Origin: a virus
Taxonomy: Duplodnaviria; Heunggongvirae; Uroviricota; Caudoviricetes
Length of the DNA stretch: 4,447 nt
Strand: one strand, 5' to 3'
IMG/VR virus record: IMGVR_UViG_2778261170_000007
The stretch's first letter is position 1. Each line of letters starts with the position of its first letter. Below are positions 1 through 4,447 of the stretch, piece after piece. A model generated the notes under the pieces. That model was not told the origin of the DNA. It saw only the letters and a program-made list of their open reading frames with translations, and ran no database searches. A program made the translations under genes and the position numbers.

Positions 1-471
1 CCCGTTCCGTGGCCCTTAGAAACACCACCAACGGGCTGGCTAAAATGTAACGGAGCAGCATTTTCTTCTGAAAAGTATCCCAAACTGGCAAAAGCCTACC
101 CCACCAATAAATTACCGGATTTACGGGGAGAATTTATTCGCGGTTGGGATGATGGGCGCGGGGTGGATGCTGGCCGCGCTTTGCTTAATTGGCAGCCACA
201 CACAATTTTGGACCATGCACACTATATGGAATTATGGACAGGGGACGGACTCGCCGCAGGAAGTGCACGGGAAGGCGTAAATCCAGGAATACTAGCTACA
301 TACGGTGACGGGGGAATAGTTAAAACGGACGAACCCGGTCATAAGGTGCCTTCCTCACTACGAGCTATTAGCTCTCGTAGTGTTAAACGTTATGGTGAAA
401 TTAGTGGAAATGTAGGTACAGAAACTCGCCCTCGCAACGTTGCATTTAATTACATCGTAAGGGCGGCATAA
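1..471 (+). CDS. Tail-fiber tip / receptor-binding cassette A (tail-collar domain family), 5'-partial at window edge
   Basis: Frame 1 is open from nt 1 to TAA at 469-471. Translation PVPWPLETPPTGWLKCNGAAFSSEKYPKLAKAYPTNKLPDLRGEFIRGWDDGRGVDAGR...ETRPRNVAFNYIVRAA carries the tail-collar signature (P-x-GW-x-C-NG, LPDLRG-F-RG-D-GRG). HAH motif at 214-222. Nucleotide-identical in reverse complement to 3977-4447. Confidence 0.8.
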   Translation, partial: PVPWPLETPPTGWLKCNGAAFSSEKYPKLAKAYPTNKLPDLRGEFIRGWDDGRGVDAGRALLNWQPHTILDHAHYMELWTGDGLAAGSAREGVNPGILATYGDGGIVKTDEPGHKVPSSLRAISSRSVKRYGEISGNVGTETRPRNVAFNYIVRAA

Positions 472-483
472 AAACGTTGGTTT
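1..483. repeat. Left arm of a perfect >=483-bp inverted repeat (pairs with 3965-4447); truncated by the window edge
   Basis: Position x on the + strand equals the reverse complement of position 4448-x. Identity ends at 484 (g versus a), immediately after the conserved junction spacer. Confidence 0.85.
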
Positions 484-495
484 GGGGGAAGGCTC
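456..495 (+). repeat. Conserved 40-bp inter-cassette junction (candidate recombination/crossover site), A-B
   Basis: CGTAAGGGCGGCATAAAAACGTTGGTTTGGGGGAAGGCTC: last codons of one cassette, TAA, a 10-nt non-coding spacer AAACGTTGGT, and the first codons of the next. The identical 40-mer recurs at 3027-3066 and 3466-3505 on the minus strand. Confidence 0.5.
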
Positions 496-943
496 TGCAC
501 TGCCCGTTGGTGTGCCCGTTCCGTGGCCCTTAGAAACACCACCAACGGGCTGGCTAAAATGTAACGGAGCAGCATTTTCTTCTGAAAAGTACCCAAAACT
601 GGCAAAGGCTTACCCTACTAATAAATTGCCGGATTTACGCGGTGAATTTATTCGTGGCTGGGATGACGGACGTGGTGTGGATGCCGGGCGACAATTATTA
701 TCTTCACAGGGGGATGCAATAAGAAATATTGAGGGGTTCGCAGATGGCGGGATTGGCATGTCTTTTGATGCAATCAGAGGGGCTTTTTATGATGCAGGAA
801 CACGATCAGCGAGAATGCCGAATAACACAACTACTATAGACAAAACCGATGACCTTGGATTCGACGCCTCTCGTGTCGTGCCAACAGCTAATGAAAACCG
901 TCCTCGTAATATTGCCTTTAATTACATCGTAAGGGCGGCATAA
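482..943 (+). CDS. Tail-fiber tip / receptor-binding cassette B (tail-collar domain family)
   Basis: ORF with a TTG at the conserved module start (482) and TAA at 941-943. N-terminal block of subtype A (PLETPP, YPKLAKAYPTNK), a unique variable core with no HxH, and the conserved C-terminus ENRPRNIAFNYIVRAA. No ATG or convincing Shine-Dalgarno, so the true start is uncertain. Confidence 0.75.
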   Translation: MGEGSALPVGVPVPWPLETPPTGWLKCNGAAFSSEKYPKLAKAYPTNKLPDLRGEFIRGWDDGRGVDAGRQLLSSQGDAIRNIEGFADGGIGMSFDAIRGAFYDAGTRSARMPNNTTTIDKTDDLGFDASRVVPTANENRPRNIAFNYIVRAA

Positions 944-967
944 AAACGTTGGTTTAGGGGAAGGCTC
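928..967 (+). repeat. Conserved 40-bp inter-cassette junction, B-C (variant with TTA in place of TTG)
   Basis: Differs from the 456-495 junction by one substitution (TTG to TTA); identical to the minus-strand junction at 3953-3992. Confidence 0.5.
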
Positions 968-983
968 GGCGCTGCCCGTTGGC

Positions 984-1451
984 GTGCCTGTTCCATGGCC
1001 CTCAGCCACACCTCCAACGGGGTGGCTGAAATGCAATGGTGCAGCATTTTCTTCTGAAAAGTACCCAAATCTGGCAAAGGTTTACCCAACGTTAAAATTA
1101 CCTGATTTACGCGGTGAGTTTATCCGTGGTTGGGATGATGGGCGAGGGATTGACTCTGGTCGCTCTATTTTAAGCGAGCAAGGATATGCAACGGAGGATC
1201 ATGCTCACGGATTACCGTCAAAATCAACCGTAGCAACTGACCGCTCAATTAATTTCTACTTTGACGAGGCATGGGCTACTAGTGGTAATACGGGAGTTAT
1301 CAGATGGGGGAACACAAGCGATGCAGGATTGCCAGCCCCTAATTATGGAACTTTTAAAACATATAAACAGTCCGTAGCTAATTTAGGTACTGCTGGCTTA
1401 GAAACCCGCCCTCGTAATGTTGCATTTAATTATATTGTGAGGGCGGATTAA
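984..1451 (+). CDS. Tail-fiber tip / receptor-binding cassette C (tail-collar domain family); conserved module actually begins at 954
   Basis: The conserved module start codon is TTA at 954-956 (TTG in other cassettes); the first possible start is GTG at 984. The frame is open from 933. Subtype-B N-terminal block (PSATPP, YPNLAKVYPTLK), HAH motif at 1200-1208, C-terminus ETRPRNVAFNYIVRAD, TAA at 1449-1451. Confidence 0.7.
   Translation: MPVPWPSATPPTGWLKCNGAAFSSEKYPNLAKVYPTLKLPDLRGEFIRGWDDGRGIDSGRSILSEQGYATEDHAHGLPSKSTVATDRSINFYFDEAWATSGNTGVIRWGNTSDAGLPAPNYGTFKTYKQSVANLGTAGLETRPRNVAFNYIVRAD
987..1147. repeat. Left arm of a 161-bp perfect inverted repeat (pairs with 2333-2493) in the conserved 5' block of cassette C
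   Basis: 10-mer by 10-mer comparison of 987-1147 with the reverse complement of 2333-2493 shows identity, bounded by mismatches at 986 and 1148. Confidence 0.85.
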
Positions 1452-1456
1452 TTATA

Positions 1457-2068
1457 TCAACTGGCTGTAGAAAGTTGTTTTTCAGGCCAGTTGAGATCTG
1501 GTGCCGTGGTTAAATCCATCGCGTTCAGCTCGTCTATATAATCTAGCACGGAGTTAAGCTGCGTGGTTTCTGCCTGCGTCAACTTCCGTCCAGCCCGTAA
1601 TTTCAACTGAATCAGACTAATGGAATCCATCGCAGTATCAATCAATGACTGACGTTTTGTTTCTGCTGCCTCTACAGCTGCACTATGTTGAGCCTCAGTA
1701 TCAACCACCCATTTCTCTCCATCCCATTTGTCGTATGGTGTTAGCGGGGCGATAGTGGTTGTATTTTCCGGATAGTCACCCAACACCGTGATTTCTTCGG
1801 GATTCCCAGTGTCAATGCTATAGACAGTTTCGCCACGATGATCTGGCACATACTCCCATGAACTTAAATCCTCTGAACGGAGAATCGCATAACCTGCTTT
1901 ATGTGAGCCTGGAGCATCCAAACAAGAATTTGCCGGAATACCAACGCCAACAGCAAGATATTCAGTTGATGCAGAAATATATTCCCGATTACCACCATCA
2001 TAGTTATAAACGATAATGTTTCCTGCCTGTATGGCTATAAGTTCGCTATTTAATATCGCATTATCCAT
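1457..2068 (-). CDS. tfa: Phage tail fiber assembly protein (Tfa; Mu U / P2 G / lambda Tfa-like chaperone)
   Basis: 203-aa ORF with a canonical ATG at 2066-2068 and TGA at 1457-1459. The C-terminal region ...KWDGEKWVVDTEAQHSAAVEAAETKRQSLIDTAMDSISLIQLKLRAGRKLTQAETTQLNSVLDYIDELNAMDLTTAPDLNWPE matches, from memory, the conserved C-terminal domain of enterobacterial tail fiber assembly proteins (DTEA..., STAPDIEWP-like end). Its start overlaps the stop of the upstream cassette (TAATGG), indicating translational coupling. Confidence 0.85.
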   Translation of the reverse strand: MDNAILNSELIAIQAGNIIVYNYDGGNREYISASTEYLAVGVGIPANSCLDAPGSHKAGYAILRSEDLSSWEYVPDHRGETVYSIDTGNPEEITVLGDYPENTTTIAPLTPYDKWDGEKWVVDTEAQHSAAVEAAETKRQSLIDTAMDSISLIQLKLRAGRKLTQAETTQLNSVLDYIDELNAMDLTTAPDLNWPEKQLSTAS

Positions 2069-2526
2069 TATGCTGCTCTCACAATATAATTGAAGGCAAT
2101 GTTACGTGGGCGGGTTTCATTCCCCCCAGATAACTCCGTTCTGTATTGACTGGTAAATTTACCATTAATCGCTCCTTCTTGGACGGCGTTATCTGTCGAC
2201 AACAGACTATCCCCCCCTCTGTCATTTGGCACCAATACCGTGTTATCCCACGCGTCCCATGACCGAATATTATGATAATGACTTCCTGTTAACCACCCCT
2301 GTATGCTTAAGATGACCCTTCCCGCATCCACACCTCGCCCATCATCCCAACCACGGATAAACTCACCGCGTAAATCAGGTAATTTTAACGTTGGGTAAAC
2401 CTTTGCCAGATTTGGGTACTTTTCAGAAGAAAATGCTGCACCATTGCATTTCAGCCACCCCGTTGGAGGTGTGGCTGAGGGCCATGGAACAGGTACACCA
2501 ACGGGCAGCGCCGAGCCTTCTCCCAA
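2068..2526 (-). CDS. Tail-fiber tip / receptor-binding cassette D (tail-collar domain family), coupled to tfa
   Basis: TTG at 2524-2526, TAA at 2068-2070 overlapping the tfa ATG. Subtype-B N-terminal block, HYH motif at 2272-2280, C-terminus ETRPRNIAFNYIVRAA. Confidence 0.8.
   Translation of the reverse strand: MGEGSALPVGVPVPWPSATPPTGWLKCNGAAFSSEKYPNLAKVYPTLKLPDLRGEFIRGWDDGRGVDAGRVILSIQGWLTGSHYHNIRSWDAWDNTVLVPNDRGGDSLLSTDNAVQEGAINGKFTSQYRTELSGGNETRPRNIAFNYIVRAA
2333..2493. repeat. Right arm of the 161-bp perfect inverted repeat (pairs with 987-1147) in the conserved 5' block of cassette D
   Basis: See the left arm. Together the two arms bracket 1148-2332, which holds the cassette C variable core, tfa and the cassette D variable core. 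Confidence 0.85.
2341..2439. repeat. 99-bp perfect direct repeat, copy 1 (cassette D 5' block); copy 2 at 2865-2963
   Basis: 2341-2439 is identical to 2865-2963 (atcatcccaaccacggataaactcaccgcg...aaaatgctgc); flanking sequence is similar but has substitutions. Confidence 0.8.
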
Positions 2527-2552
2527 ACCAATGTTTTTATGCTGCCCTTACG
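2513..2552 (-). repeat. Conserved 40-bp inter-cassette junction, E-D (most divergent copy, 3 substitutions)
   Basis: Minus-strand sequence CGTAAGGGCAGCATAAAAACATTGGTTTGGGAGAAGGCTC. Confidence 0.45.
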
Positions 2553-3040
2553 ATGTAATTAAAAGCAACGTTGCGGGGGCGCATTGATATCCATGCCCCG
2601 GTAAAATTATCCTCTGCCGTCCTTTGAGTACCCGTTATGGAGTTATCTGCTGATGCTGGAACATAATCGCTATTATCTCCTGCTTTAGGATTAGCAGGGT
2701 TTCCAACAGTTATAACAGAATCAGCAGTAGCATAAGCGATACCTACTTTGACATTAGTAGTCAGATCGACACCGTAATAATCCTGCAAAGCTGTACGAAT
2801 AAATGTTGCAGTCTGACCACTTAGCAATGAACGCCCTGTATCAATCCCTCTCGAATCATCCCAACCACGGATAAACTCACCGCGTAAATCAGGTAATTTT
2901 AACGTTGGGTAAACCTTTGCCAGATTTGGGTACTTTTCAGAAGAAAATGCTGCTCCGTTACATTTCAGCCACCCCGTTGGCGGTGTGGCTGAGGGCCATG
3001 GAACAGGCACGCCAACGGGCAGCGCCGAGCCTTCCCCCAA
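2537..3040 (-). CDS. Tail-fiber tip / receptor-binding cassette E (tail-collar domain family)
   Basis: TTG at 3038-3040, TAA at 2537-2539. Subtype-B N-terminal block, the longest variable core (about 81 aa, no HxH), C-terminus MRPRNVAFNYIVRAA. Confidence 0.75.
   Translation of the reverse strand: MGEGSALPVGVPVPWPSATPPTGWLKCNGAAFSSEKYPNLAKVYPTLKLPDLRGEFIRGWDDSRGIDTGRSLLSGQTATFIRTALQDYYGVDLTTNVKVGIAYATADSVITVGNPANPKAGDNSDYVPASADNSITGTQRTAEDNFTGAWISMRPRNVAFNYIVRAA
2865..2963. repeat. 99-bp perfect direct repeat, copy 2 (cassette E 5' block)
   Basis: Identical to 2341-2439. Confidence 0.8.
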
Positions 3041-3066
3041 ACCAACGTTTTTATGCCGCCCTTACG
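3027..3066 (-). repeat. Conserved 40-bp inter-cassette junction, F-E
   Basis: Minus-strand sequence identical to the 456-495 junction. Confidence 0.5.
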
Positions 3067-3479
3067 ATATAATTAAACGCAATGTTACGAGGACGAATGG
3101 TTACATAATTAACCCCATCACCTCGTGAAGGCCCTGCAAATGAAAAACGGGAAAATCCTGGTTGGTTAGAAACAATTTGGTCATAGTTATTGATTGAATG
3201 ACCAGACCCAATGTCGAAATTACCTCCGTAATGAGAAAAACTTGTACCATCCTGCCCTGAAAGCAGGGTACGTCCCGCATCAATCCCGCGCCCATCATCC
3301 CAGCCACGGATAAATTCACCGCGTAAATCCGGTAATTTATTGGTGGGGTAGGCTTTTGCCAGTTTGGGATACATTTCAGAAGAAAATGCTGCACCATTGC
3401 ATTTTAGCCAGCCAGTTGGTGGTGTTTCTAAGGGCCACGGAACGGGCACACCAACAGGCAATGCAGAGCCTTCCCCCAA
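3051..3479 (-). CDS. Tail-fiber tip / receptor-binding cassette F (tail-collar domain family)
   Basis: TTG at 3477-3479, TAA at 3051-3053. Subtype-A N-terminal block (PLETPP, EMYPKLAKAYPTNK), the shortest variable core (about 56 aa), C-terminus IRPRNIAFNYIVRAA. Confidence 0.75.
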   Translation of the reverse strand: MGEGSALPVGVPVPWPLETPPTGWLKCNGAAFSSEMYPKLAKAYPTNKLPDLRGEFIRGWDDGRGIDAGRTLLSGQDGTSFSHYGGNFDIGSGHSINNYDQIVSNQPGFSRFSFAGPSRGDGVNYVTIRPRNIAFNYIVRAA

Positions 3480-3505
3480 ACCAACGTTTTTATGCCGCCC
3501 TTACG
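3466..3505 (-). repeat. Conserved 40-bp inter-cassette junction, G-F
   Basis: Minus-strand sequence identical to the 456-495 junction. Confidence 0.5.
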
Positions 3506-3948
3506 ATGTAATTAAATGCGATATTTCGTGGACGGGTTTCACTCCCGCCAGTATTACCAATACTCCCTCGAGAATGAAGTGTCGGTGATGGAATCAAATT
3601 CCCTCCTGTATTTGAGGCATCAAGCCCCCGTCCTTGTGTGTATGTTTTTTTGAAAATTGTCGCCAGCTCCCATTCATCTTTTGTGTCGTAACCATCATTG
3701 GCTACAACAATATGTCGGTGCTTTTCCAGCATTCCTGTCTGAATGCTCAATAAAGCACGTCCCGCATCCACCCCGCGCCCATCATCCCAGCCGCGAATAA
3801 ATTCTCCCCGTAAATCCGGTAATTTATTGGTGGGATAAGCCTTTGCCAGTTTTGGGTACTTTTCAGAAGAAAATGCTGCTCCGTTGCATTTTAGCCAGCC
3901 TGTTGGCGGAGTGGCTGAGGGCCACGGAACAGGTACGCCAACAGGCAA
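3490..3948 (-). CDS. Tail-fiber tip / receptor-binding cassette G (tail-collar domain family); conserved module extends to 3966
   Basis: The conserved module start is TTA at 3964-3966; the first possible start is TTG at 3946-3948. TAA at 3490-3492. Chimeric N-terminal block (PSATPP of subtype B followed by YPKLAKAYPTNK of subtype A), HRH motif at 3712-3720, C-terminus ETRPRNIAFNYIVRAA. Confidence 0.7.
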   Translation of the reverse strand: MPVGVPVPWPSATPPTGWLKCNGAAFSSEKYPKLAKAYPTNKLPDLRGEFIRGWDDGRGVDAGRALLSIQTGMLEKHRHIVVANDGYDTKDEWELATIFKKTYTQGRGLDASNTGGNLIPSPTLHSRGSIGNTGGSETRPRNIAFNYIVRAA

Positions 3949-3952
3949 TGCT

Positions 3953-3992
3953 GAGCCTTCCCCTAAACCAACGTTTTTATGCCGCCCTTACG
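3953..3992 (-). repeat. Conserved 40-bp inter-cassette junction, A'-G (TTA variant)
   Basis: Minus-strand sequence identical to the 928-967 junction. Confidence 0.5.
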
Positions 3993-4447
3993 ATGTAATT
4001 AAATGCAACGTTGCGAGGGCGAGTTTCTGTACCTACATTTCCACTAATTTCACCATAACGTTTAACACTACGAGAGCTAATAGCTCGTAGTGAGGAAGGC
4101 ACCTTATGACCGGGTTCGTCCGTTTTAACTATTCCCCCGTCACCGTATGTAGCTAGTATTCCTGGATTTACGCCTTCCCGTGCACTTCCTGCGGCGAGTC
4201 CGTCCCCTGTCCATAATTCCATATAGTGTGCATGGTCCAAAATTGTGTGTGGCTGCCAATTAAGCAAAGCGCGGCCAGCATCCACCCCGCGCCCATCATC
4301 CCAACCGCGAATAAATTCTCCCCGTAAATCCGGTAATTTATTGGTGGGGTAGGCTTTTGCCAGTTTGGGATACTTTTCAGAAGAAAATGCTGCTCCGTTA
4401 CATTTTAGCCAGCCCGTTGGTGGTGTTTCTAAGGGCCACGGAACGGG
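3965..4447. repeat. Right arm of the perfect >=483-bp inverted repeat (pairs with 1-483)
   Basis: Reverse complement matches 1-483 on the blocks checked; the arm runs to the window edge and so probably continues beyond it. Confidence 0.85.
3977..4447 (-). CDS. Tail-fiber tip / receptor-binding cassette A' (inverted identical copy of cassette A), 5'-partial at window edge
   Basis: The minus-strand frame is open to the window end, with TAA at 3977-3979. The reverse complement of 3965-4447 equals 1-483; this was checked on 1-180, 177-246, 241-300, 308-427 and the 3' junction. Confidence 0.8.
   Translation of the reverse strand, partial: PVPWPLETPPTGWLKCNGAAFSSEKYPKLAKAYPTNKLPDLRGEFIRGWDDGRGVDAGRALLNWQPHTILDHAHYMELWTGDGLAAGSAREGVNPGILATYGDGGIVKTDEPGHKVPSSLRAISSRSVKRYGEISGNVGTETRPRNVAFNYIVRAA

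Follow-up and report, generated by a model that had tools for sequence, protein, structure and literature searches.

An inversion array of alternative tail fibre ends in a P1/p15B-like phage-plasmid, with tips that are probably short gp37-like insertions clamped by one axial metal

The whole stretch of DNA analyzed here, referred to as the window, is 4,447 bases long and holds eight short open reading frames (ORFs) of one family together with one unrelated gene. The ORFs of the family, called cassettes A to G and A', are alternative 3' ends of a tail fibre gene, S, and the unrelated gene is a tail fibre assembly gene. The features, in the order of their coordinates, are as follows.

1-471, plus strand: cassette A, an alternative 3' end of the tail fibre gene S, recognized by its translation, by a Pfam Collar match (E=1.2e-14) and by alignments with gp37; it comprises the N-terminal part of the collar (1-177), a conserved spacer (178-213), HAH (214-222) and a variable insertion that runs to 420
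214-222, plus strand: HAH codons of cassette A, the first His being the 13th residue after the R of DAGR
421-468, plus strand: return strand of the cassette A collar, ETRPRNVAFNYIVRAA, followed by the stop codon at 469-471
472-495, plus strand: crossover site AAACGTTGGTTTGGGGGAAGGCTC upstream of cassette B
482-943, plus strand: cassette B, with PVPWP starting at 515; it lacks HxH and has GDAIRNIEG at the equivalent place
944-967, plus strand: crossover site upstream of cassette C
984-1451, plus strand: cassette C, with PVPWP starting at 987 and HAH at 1200-1208
1457-2068, minus strand: tail fibre assembly (chaperone) gene tfa (Pfam Caudo_TAP, E=3e-30; PHROG 105)
2068-2526, minus strand: cassette D, with PVPWP starting at 2493 and HYH at 2272-2280
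2513-2536, minus strand: crossover site upstream of cassette D
2537-3040, minus strand: cassette E, which lacks HxH and carries TATFIRTALQDYYG
3027-3050, minus strand: crossover site upstream of cassette E
3051-3479, minus strand: cassette F, which lacks HxH, carries DGTSFSHYGGNF and has the shortest core
3466-3489, minus strand: crossover site upstream of cassette F
3490-3948, minus strand: cassette G, with HRH at 3712-3720
3953-3976, minus strand: crossover site upstream of cassette G
3977-4447, minus strand: cassette A', an exact inverted copy of cassette A (471 of 471 nucleotides), with HAH at 4226-4234

The cassettes share a common plan, in which a conserved N-terminal part, PVPWP...LPDLRGEFIRGWDDGRGxDxGR, is followed by a variable stretch and then by a conserved end, (E)TRPRN(I/V)AFNYIVRAA. 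All seven cassette types match the Pfam Collar family (PF07484) with scores of 54 to 57 bits against a cut-off of 24, and the PHROGs calls are "tail collar fiber protein" for the cassettes and "tail fiber assembly" for tfa. Each of the seven types is an intact ORF that is in frame through the crossover site. Cassette C ends (1443-1451) in ...IVRAD and the other types in the window in ...IVRAA; the RAD ending was seen again in C-type cassettes of other loci. Cassette C runs directly into the stop of the convergent tfa gene, with no crossover site between them. At its other end, tfa overlaps the stop codon of cassette D with its own start in a TAATG stop/start coupling. Cassette D is thus the only one with its own tfa, the six other types having none, unlike the alternatives of P1 and Mu, which have their own U and U'; in the present isomer, tfa has the opposite orientation to the plus-strand cassettes.

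Cassettes A and A' occupy precisely the two ends of the window, and the conserved sequence that flanks them differs between the two. The A type is present once in complete plasmids such as NZ_AP022163, and another IMG/VR contig has a comparable terminal inverted duplicate, in that case of a G-type cassette (L051). Assembly artefacts of this kind, arising from mixed inversion isomers, have been warned of before (PMC4134206). The A/A' duplicate would seem to be such an artefact, of a population in which inversion isomers were mixed, the alternative being a real duplication.

The crossover sequence AAACGTTGGTTTGGGGGAAGGCTC occurs six times in the window, twice on the plus strand and four times on the minus strand, where zero occurrences are expected by chance. 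Each site lies directly past the stop codon of one cassette, and the PVPWP codons of the next cassette begin 19 to 23 nucleotides beyond the end of the site. The sequence matches the Din-family consensus as well as the EC958 Phi2 prophage site "AAACGTTGGTTTGGGGGAA" listed in PMC4134206, and read in the cassette frame it encodes NVGLGEGS. In NZ_AP022163, an S gene of 875 amino acids ends in an A-type cassette, to which it is joined via a hybrid site, "...LNYLGLGEGSALPVGVPVPWP...", and is followed by one plus-strand cassette, tfa, five minus-strand cassettes and a serine recombinase of 193 amino acids. A recombinase of 190 to 193 amino acids adjoins the array in every near-identical plasmid examined; both this invertase and the constant part of S lie outside the window. 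Between assemblies, the same tfa and cassettes appear in differing order and orientation relative to S, i.e., as inversion isomers, with cassette D fused to S and followed by tfa in two assemblies and cassette A fused to S in another. We propose that the serine invertase, encoded just outside the array in the near-identical plasmids, would recombine pairs of oppositely oriented crossover sites, and that each inversion would fuse the constant 5' part of S to one of the seven alternative 3' cassettes.

The best DNA matches of the window, at 93 to 98% identity, are non-mobilisable IncY plasmids of 92 to 102 kb from E. coli and Klebsiella, and the same cassettes are 93 to 99% conserved in hundreds of plasmids. 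In contigs that carry an identical tfa, the genes follow the order of P1, namely sit, gp16, R, S, cassettes, invertase, lydA/B, darA. A tailocin context was ruled out, the closest records being these IncY P1-like phage-plasmids of 92 to 102 kb, which carry sit, gp16, R, S, lydA/B, darA and ddrB. Two further loci (L120 and L123) have an identical tfa protein and a D-type fibre end in P2-like chromosomal prophages, and the P2-like prophages have a simple two-cassette inversion region with the same invertase of 190 amino acids. Because the identical tfa and the D-type end are found in both settings, the cassette module appears to move between P1-like plasmids and P2-like prophages.

An earlier reading made from the sequence alone had drawn attention to an HxH motif that recurs at the same relative position in several cassettes. 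Its coordinates are right: HAH is encoded at 214-222 (CAT GCA CAC) and 1200-1208 (CAT GCT CAC), HYH at 2272-2280 on the minus strand and HRH at 3712-3720 on the minus strand. The recurrence of the position is confirmed and proves tighter than claimed, since the sequence-only reading gave an offset of 12 to 15 residues after DxGR, and in A, C, D and G alike the first His is the 13th residue after the R of D(A/S)GR, with exactly 12 residues in between. Cassettes B and E had been listed as lacking the motif, correctly, although the list was incomplete, as cassette F also lacks it. The length put forward for the variable cores, 56 to 81 amino acids, is close to our 51 to 76 amino acids, or 58 to 83 if counted from GR to RPRN. 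The cores had also been called unalignable between cassettes; indeed, BLASTP gave no in-register match among the seven types, but conservation extends six residues past GR (xLLSxQ), and the unalignable part therefore starts later than was claimed. The xLLSxQ segment, with its invariant Q, and a hydrophobic residue four positions further on are common to the classes with and without HxH. By the domain limits of gp37, this segment is structurally part of the collar, and the Pfam Collar model ends before it. Despite the conserved residues, the DNA over 178-195 and its equivalents is only 39 to 67% identical.

At the DNA level, identity between the HxH cassettes falls from 81 to 95% in the collar up to GR to 11 to 44% in the 18 nucleotides before the His codons, the DNA repeats end near nucleotides 176 to 195 of each cassette, and the His codons themselves differ synonymously between HxH cassettes. 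The drop in identity ahead of the His codons, together with the differing codons, indicates that the motif is kept by selection on the protein and not by DNA homology. It might be argued that HxH, being a short motif, is shared by chance or as a coincidence of composition. However, His makes up only 0.6% of the residues of cassette tails outside the two positions (2.1% overall), and from the His frequencies we estimate the chance of finding H at both fixed positions in four of seven cassettes at about 1e-12. The motif also stands in the same register in 20 unrelated families in the survey described below. We regard the reading of the motif as a coincidence as having next to no chance of being correct.

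With a hidden Markov model of the N-terminal part of the collar, every cassette was extracted from 115 related loci in collections of genomes and viruses. This gave 102 distinct complete tails in 30 core families, whose members share 35% identity or more across half the length or more. HxH stands at residues 13 to 15 after GR in 100% of the members of 20 of the 30 families and is absent from the other 10; at any other place, HxH was not found in the 102 distinct complete tails from the 115 loci. With the collar of 63 amino acids as sole query, mostly short partial fragments were returned, and the survey was based instead on the scans of loci and on a profile search. The latter, run against 1.84 billion cluster representatives, gave 15,126 matching proteins. 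The best 150 of these contain 168 collar modules, and 58 of the 168 have HxH at +13. Within two residues on either side of +13, no HxH starts in any of the 168 modules from the best 150 of the 15,126 proteins, and the remaining modules in the same set are mostly of the "GDA(I/M)(R/Q)NIxG" or "ATxIRTAxLDYxG" type. Across the HxH class, little or no variation is seen at L2, L3, S4 and Q6, at position 10, which is hydrophobic, and at H13 and H15. Altogether, a chance origin and an origin by DNA homology of the shared motif were ruled out by the survey of loci, the library representatives and the drop in DNA identity. The fraction of tip families that are likely to be metal-clamped is roughly one to two thirds.

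Several proteins from the profile search (P0240, P0242, P0251, P0272, P0305, P0312 and P0267), 570 to 1667 amino acids long, have three to six matched collar stretches per chain, and some modules in these multi-collar proteins are followed by gp37-like runs such as HSHSVNDPGHSHTIVD. The multi-collar proteins suggest either that tips with a single HxH grade into needles with several irons or that fusions of cassette arrays have been mis-called.

The survey also bears on whether the silent cassettes are decaying remnants that have inherited an HxH for which they no longer have a use. Just one cassette at a time can be expressed, and A' duplicates A, both of which would fit decay. On the other hand, all seven types are intact, the conservation of 93 to 99% extends over hundreds of plasmids, the A and D types are found fused to S in other isomers, and both His residues are present in every member of the 20 families. 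We thus consider decay very improbable.

Comparison with proteins of known structure places the motif more closely. When cassette G was compared with PDB sequences by phmmer, "...GRALLSIQTGMLEKHRH" was aligned with "...GRAVLSAEADGVKAHSH" of T4 gp37, so that the HxH of the cassette falls on H883/H885; in gp37 the first of these His residues is likewise the 13th residue after R870, giving an identical GR-x12-HxH spacing. A profile of 28 cassettes matches gp37 (2XGF) with E=8e-24, and its HxH column again falls on H883/H885. With their downstream sequence, cassettes A and D also match a second gp37 site, the tip-proximal H929/H931, with "HAHYMELWTGDG" of cassette A aligned with "H929-S-H931-YIEAWNGTG" of gp37. 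The gp37 counterpart therefore varies in the HMMER alignments, being H883 for cassette G and the profile and H929 for A and D. The N-terminal part and the C-terminal "RPRNIAFNYIVRAA" are aligned by HMMER to gp37 and to gp12 as two separate stretches.

In gp37, the collar domain D10 consists of residues 811-881 and 1010-1026, with D11 (882-1009) inserted into it; the needle contains seven iron atoms, with H929 and H931 among their ligands, and H929A or H931A abolishes plaque formation (PMC6957217). Three symmetry-related HxH motifs form an octahedral six-His Fe(II) site in gp37, in R1 and R2 pyocin fibres and in phage spikes, and HxH gives a zinc site in gp12 (PMC6116203). From the limits of D10 and D11 and the alignment to H883/H885, it follows that the HxH of the cassettes sits exactly at the boundary between collar and insertion. 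On this homology, the variable core is the counterpart, 44 to 69 amino acids long, of gp37 D11, with a predicted single metal site. The proposal of the sequence-only reading that the HxH cores form metal-stabilized tips like those of gp37 and gp12 thus gains support from direct sequence homology, in which the HxH column falls on iron ligands of gp37.

The cassette encodes a split collar of the gp37/gp12 type, made up of an N-terminal part from PVPWP to DxGR plus 12 residues and of the return strand ETRPRNIAFNYIVRAA, and we propose that the variable domain of 44 to 69 amino acids between the two halves forms the distal receptor-binding tip. In A, C, D and G, HxH opens the insertion, and its three copies per trimer would most likely put six imidazoles around the threefold axis, where a single Fe(II) or Zn(II) ion could be coordinated octahedrally immediately past the collar. 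This metal ion would fix how the three chains align with one another and stabilize a tip that does not have the length for a long needle. Host specificity, in which the cassettes presumably differ, would be set by the other variable residues. Metal binding and the axial position of the His residues are both predicted by homology, and we infer the axial geometry and the clamp role from the same comparison. HxH adjoins the collar, at the foot of the insertion, and is less likely to determine specificity than to act as a clamp for folding or register.

The motif might be conserved for another reason, i.e., as a contact for the tfa chaperone, as a pH-sensitive switch or as a ligand for phosphate or metal on the lipopolysaccharide (LPS) receptor. 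It lies just beyond the conserved collar, and one tfa for seven cassette types implies that some shared recognition element is needed. Yet HxH is found in the tfa-coupled cassette D as well as in the uncoupled A, C and G and is absent from B, E and F, and so does not track with tfa; the homologous histidines of gp37 are buried axial Fe ligands (PMC6957217, PMC6116203); and the invariance of both His residues, with every neighbouring residue variable, is more in keeping with a ligand pair than with a binding surface. We consider these other roles improbable and keep to the metal clamp as the preferred explanation.

An AlphaFold2 monomer model of cassette A, built from an alignment of 28 sequences, had a mean pLDDT of 55.8, with residues 72-134 below 50, values too low for the geometry to be read from it; a poor model of the monomer is expected for an intertwined trimer. 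Foldseek of this model against the PDB returned 2XGF first (E=7.6e-4, over 73 columns that are essentially the collar) and 1OCY second. When the D family was compared with gp12 by hhalign, with HYH and the zinc site H445/H447 in view, the collar alone was aligned. The Pfam family S_tail_recep_bd (PF14928) is matched by cassette D only, at 20.6 bits, below the cut-off of 23.8.

For the cassettes that lack HxH, another fold had been suggested for B and E. This is reasonable, as cassette B is homologous end to end to a collar region without HxH, that of the phiTE short tail fibre: the match covers the whole length of the cassette and residues 161-303 of the fibre (E=2.5e-29), and the stretches "QGDAIRNI(E/T)G" and "FDASR.VP.A.ENRP(R/K)NIA" are common to both. 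The alignment of cassettes E and F with this part of the phiTE fibre is a loose one. In B, E and F, the two His positions are filled by Ile, Thr or His and by Gly or Leu, respectively. The structure of the phiTE fibre (9CUY) was ruled out as a template for cassette B, as only residues 3-92 of the chain are modelled (PMC11972413), which leaves the GDAIRNIxG class without an experimental structure. Ile and Gly at the two positions suggest a core that is hydrophobic rather than metal-mediated. The sequences thus suggest that B, E and F are metal-free tip classes that resemble the "GDAIRNIxG" class of phiTE. As three types in the same array do without it, HxH is not required by the collar scaffold.

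Only one of the seven cassettes has its own chaperone gene, and HxH or its hydrophobic substitute might for that reason nucleate the trimer without a chaperone. Under this extension of the metal-clamp model, the collar would be a two-state scaffold that accepts, in the same pair of axial positions, either a metal-binding His pair or a hydrophobic/Gly pair (I-x-G, as in the GDAIRNIxG class), the short tips being unrelated in other respects, with either pair acting as a chaperone-independent trimer nucleus; we offer it as a speculation that is unlikely to hold as it stands. If it were true, the insertions of 44 to 69 amino acids would be the smallest known receptor-binding tips that fold by themselves, and they would offer a ready basis on which to engineer host range.

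Altogether, by sequence comparison, the motif is essentially the known iron-binding HxH of gp37-type tips, seen here in a putative minimal, single-site form within a known inversion system, and the current understanding of tail fibres and of DNA inversion is unchanged by the finding. It provides a structural reading for cassettes that are annotated merely as "phage tail protein" on hundreds of phage-plasmids of E. coli and Klebsiella, some of them with resistance genes. The collar would be the constant scaffold, with HxH marking the start of the swappable tip, and this gives boundaries for chimeric fibres, in which the swapped segment would begin with the His pair and end immediately before ETRPRN. 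It is further predicted that the folding of the HxH tips depends on Fe or Zn.

Among known systems, gp37 (2XGF) shares with the cassettes the split collar, with its N-terminal part, an insertion and the C-terminal NIAFNYIVR strand, and it shares with cassette A the segment "HxHY(M/I)E(L/A)W(T/N)GxG" at the tip-proximal H929/H931. The two differ in the length of the insertion, which is 44 to 69 amino acids in the cassettes compared to 128 in gp37, and in the number of HxH motifs, one per cassette compared to seven, the cassettes being without the long, six-stranded, iron-studded needle. Unlike gp37, the cassettes belong to a temperate P1-like element and are swapped by DNA inversion, and chaperones of the gp38/gp57A type are not present here. 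The receptor-binding domain of gp12 (1OCY/1H6W) likewise has the collar domain and the returning strand, "ETRPWNISLNYIIK", and binds Zn at H445/H447, where its "Q-x6-HKH" ("GEVQIQQMSYHKH") has the same spacing from Q to His as the "Q-x6-HxH" of the cassettes; unlike the cassettes, it has about 29 extra residues, a loop, between GR and the Q-x6-HKH segment. The short tail fibre of Pectobacterium phage phiTE (chain in 9CUY) is without HxH and, unlike the cassettes, continues for 250 amino acids past the collar.

With respect to inversion, the window is quite probably a Min-type multiple-inversion host-range shufflon of a P1/p15B-like phage-plasmid, in which a single axial metal ion would clamp the short, gp37-like insertions that form the tips. 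Elements of this kind have been linked to the Min invertase of p15B (X62121) in PMC6906374. The Min system, which is related to Pin of e14, shares with the array an IncY P1-like backbone and the use of several alternative 3' ends for one fibre gene; seven cassette types and a duplicate are found here. In papers of 1990-1992, the Min system of p15B is said to comprise six crossover sites and six gene variants. Cin, with the C-segment of P1, and Gin, with the G-segment of Mu, have in common with the array the invertase family, crossover sites of 26 bp and the swapping of the tail fibre C terminus, and the neighbouring genes in P1 are the same as those around the relatives of this array. P1 and Mu differ from it in having two alternatives, each with its own chaperone, U or U', and the variable parts of their S and S' proteins have neither a collar domain nor HxH.
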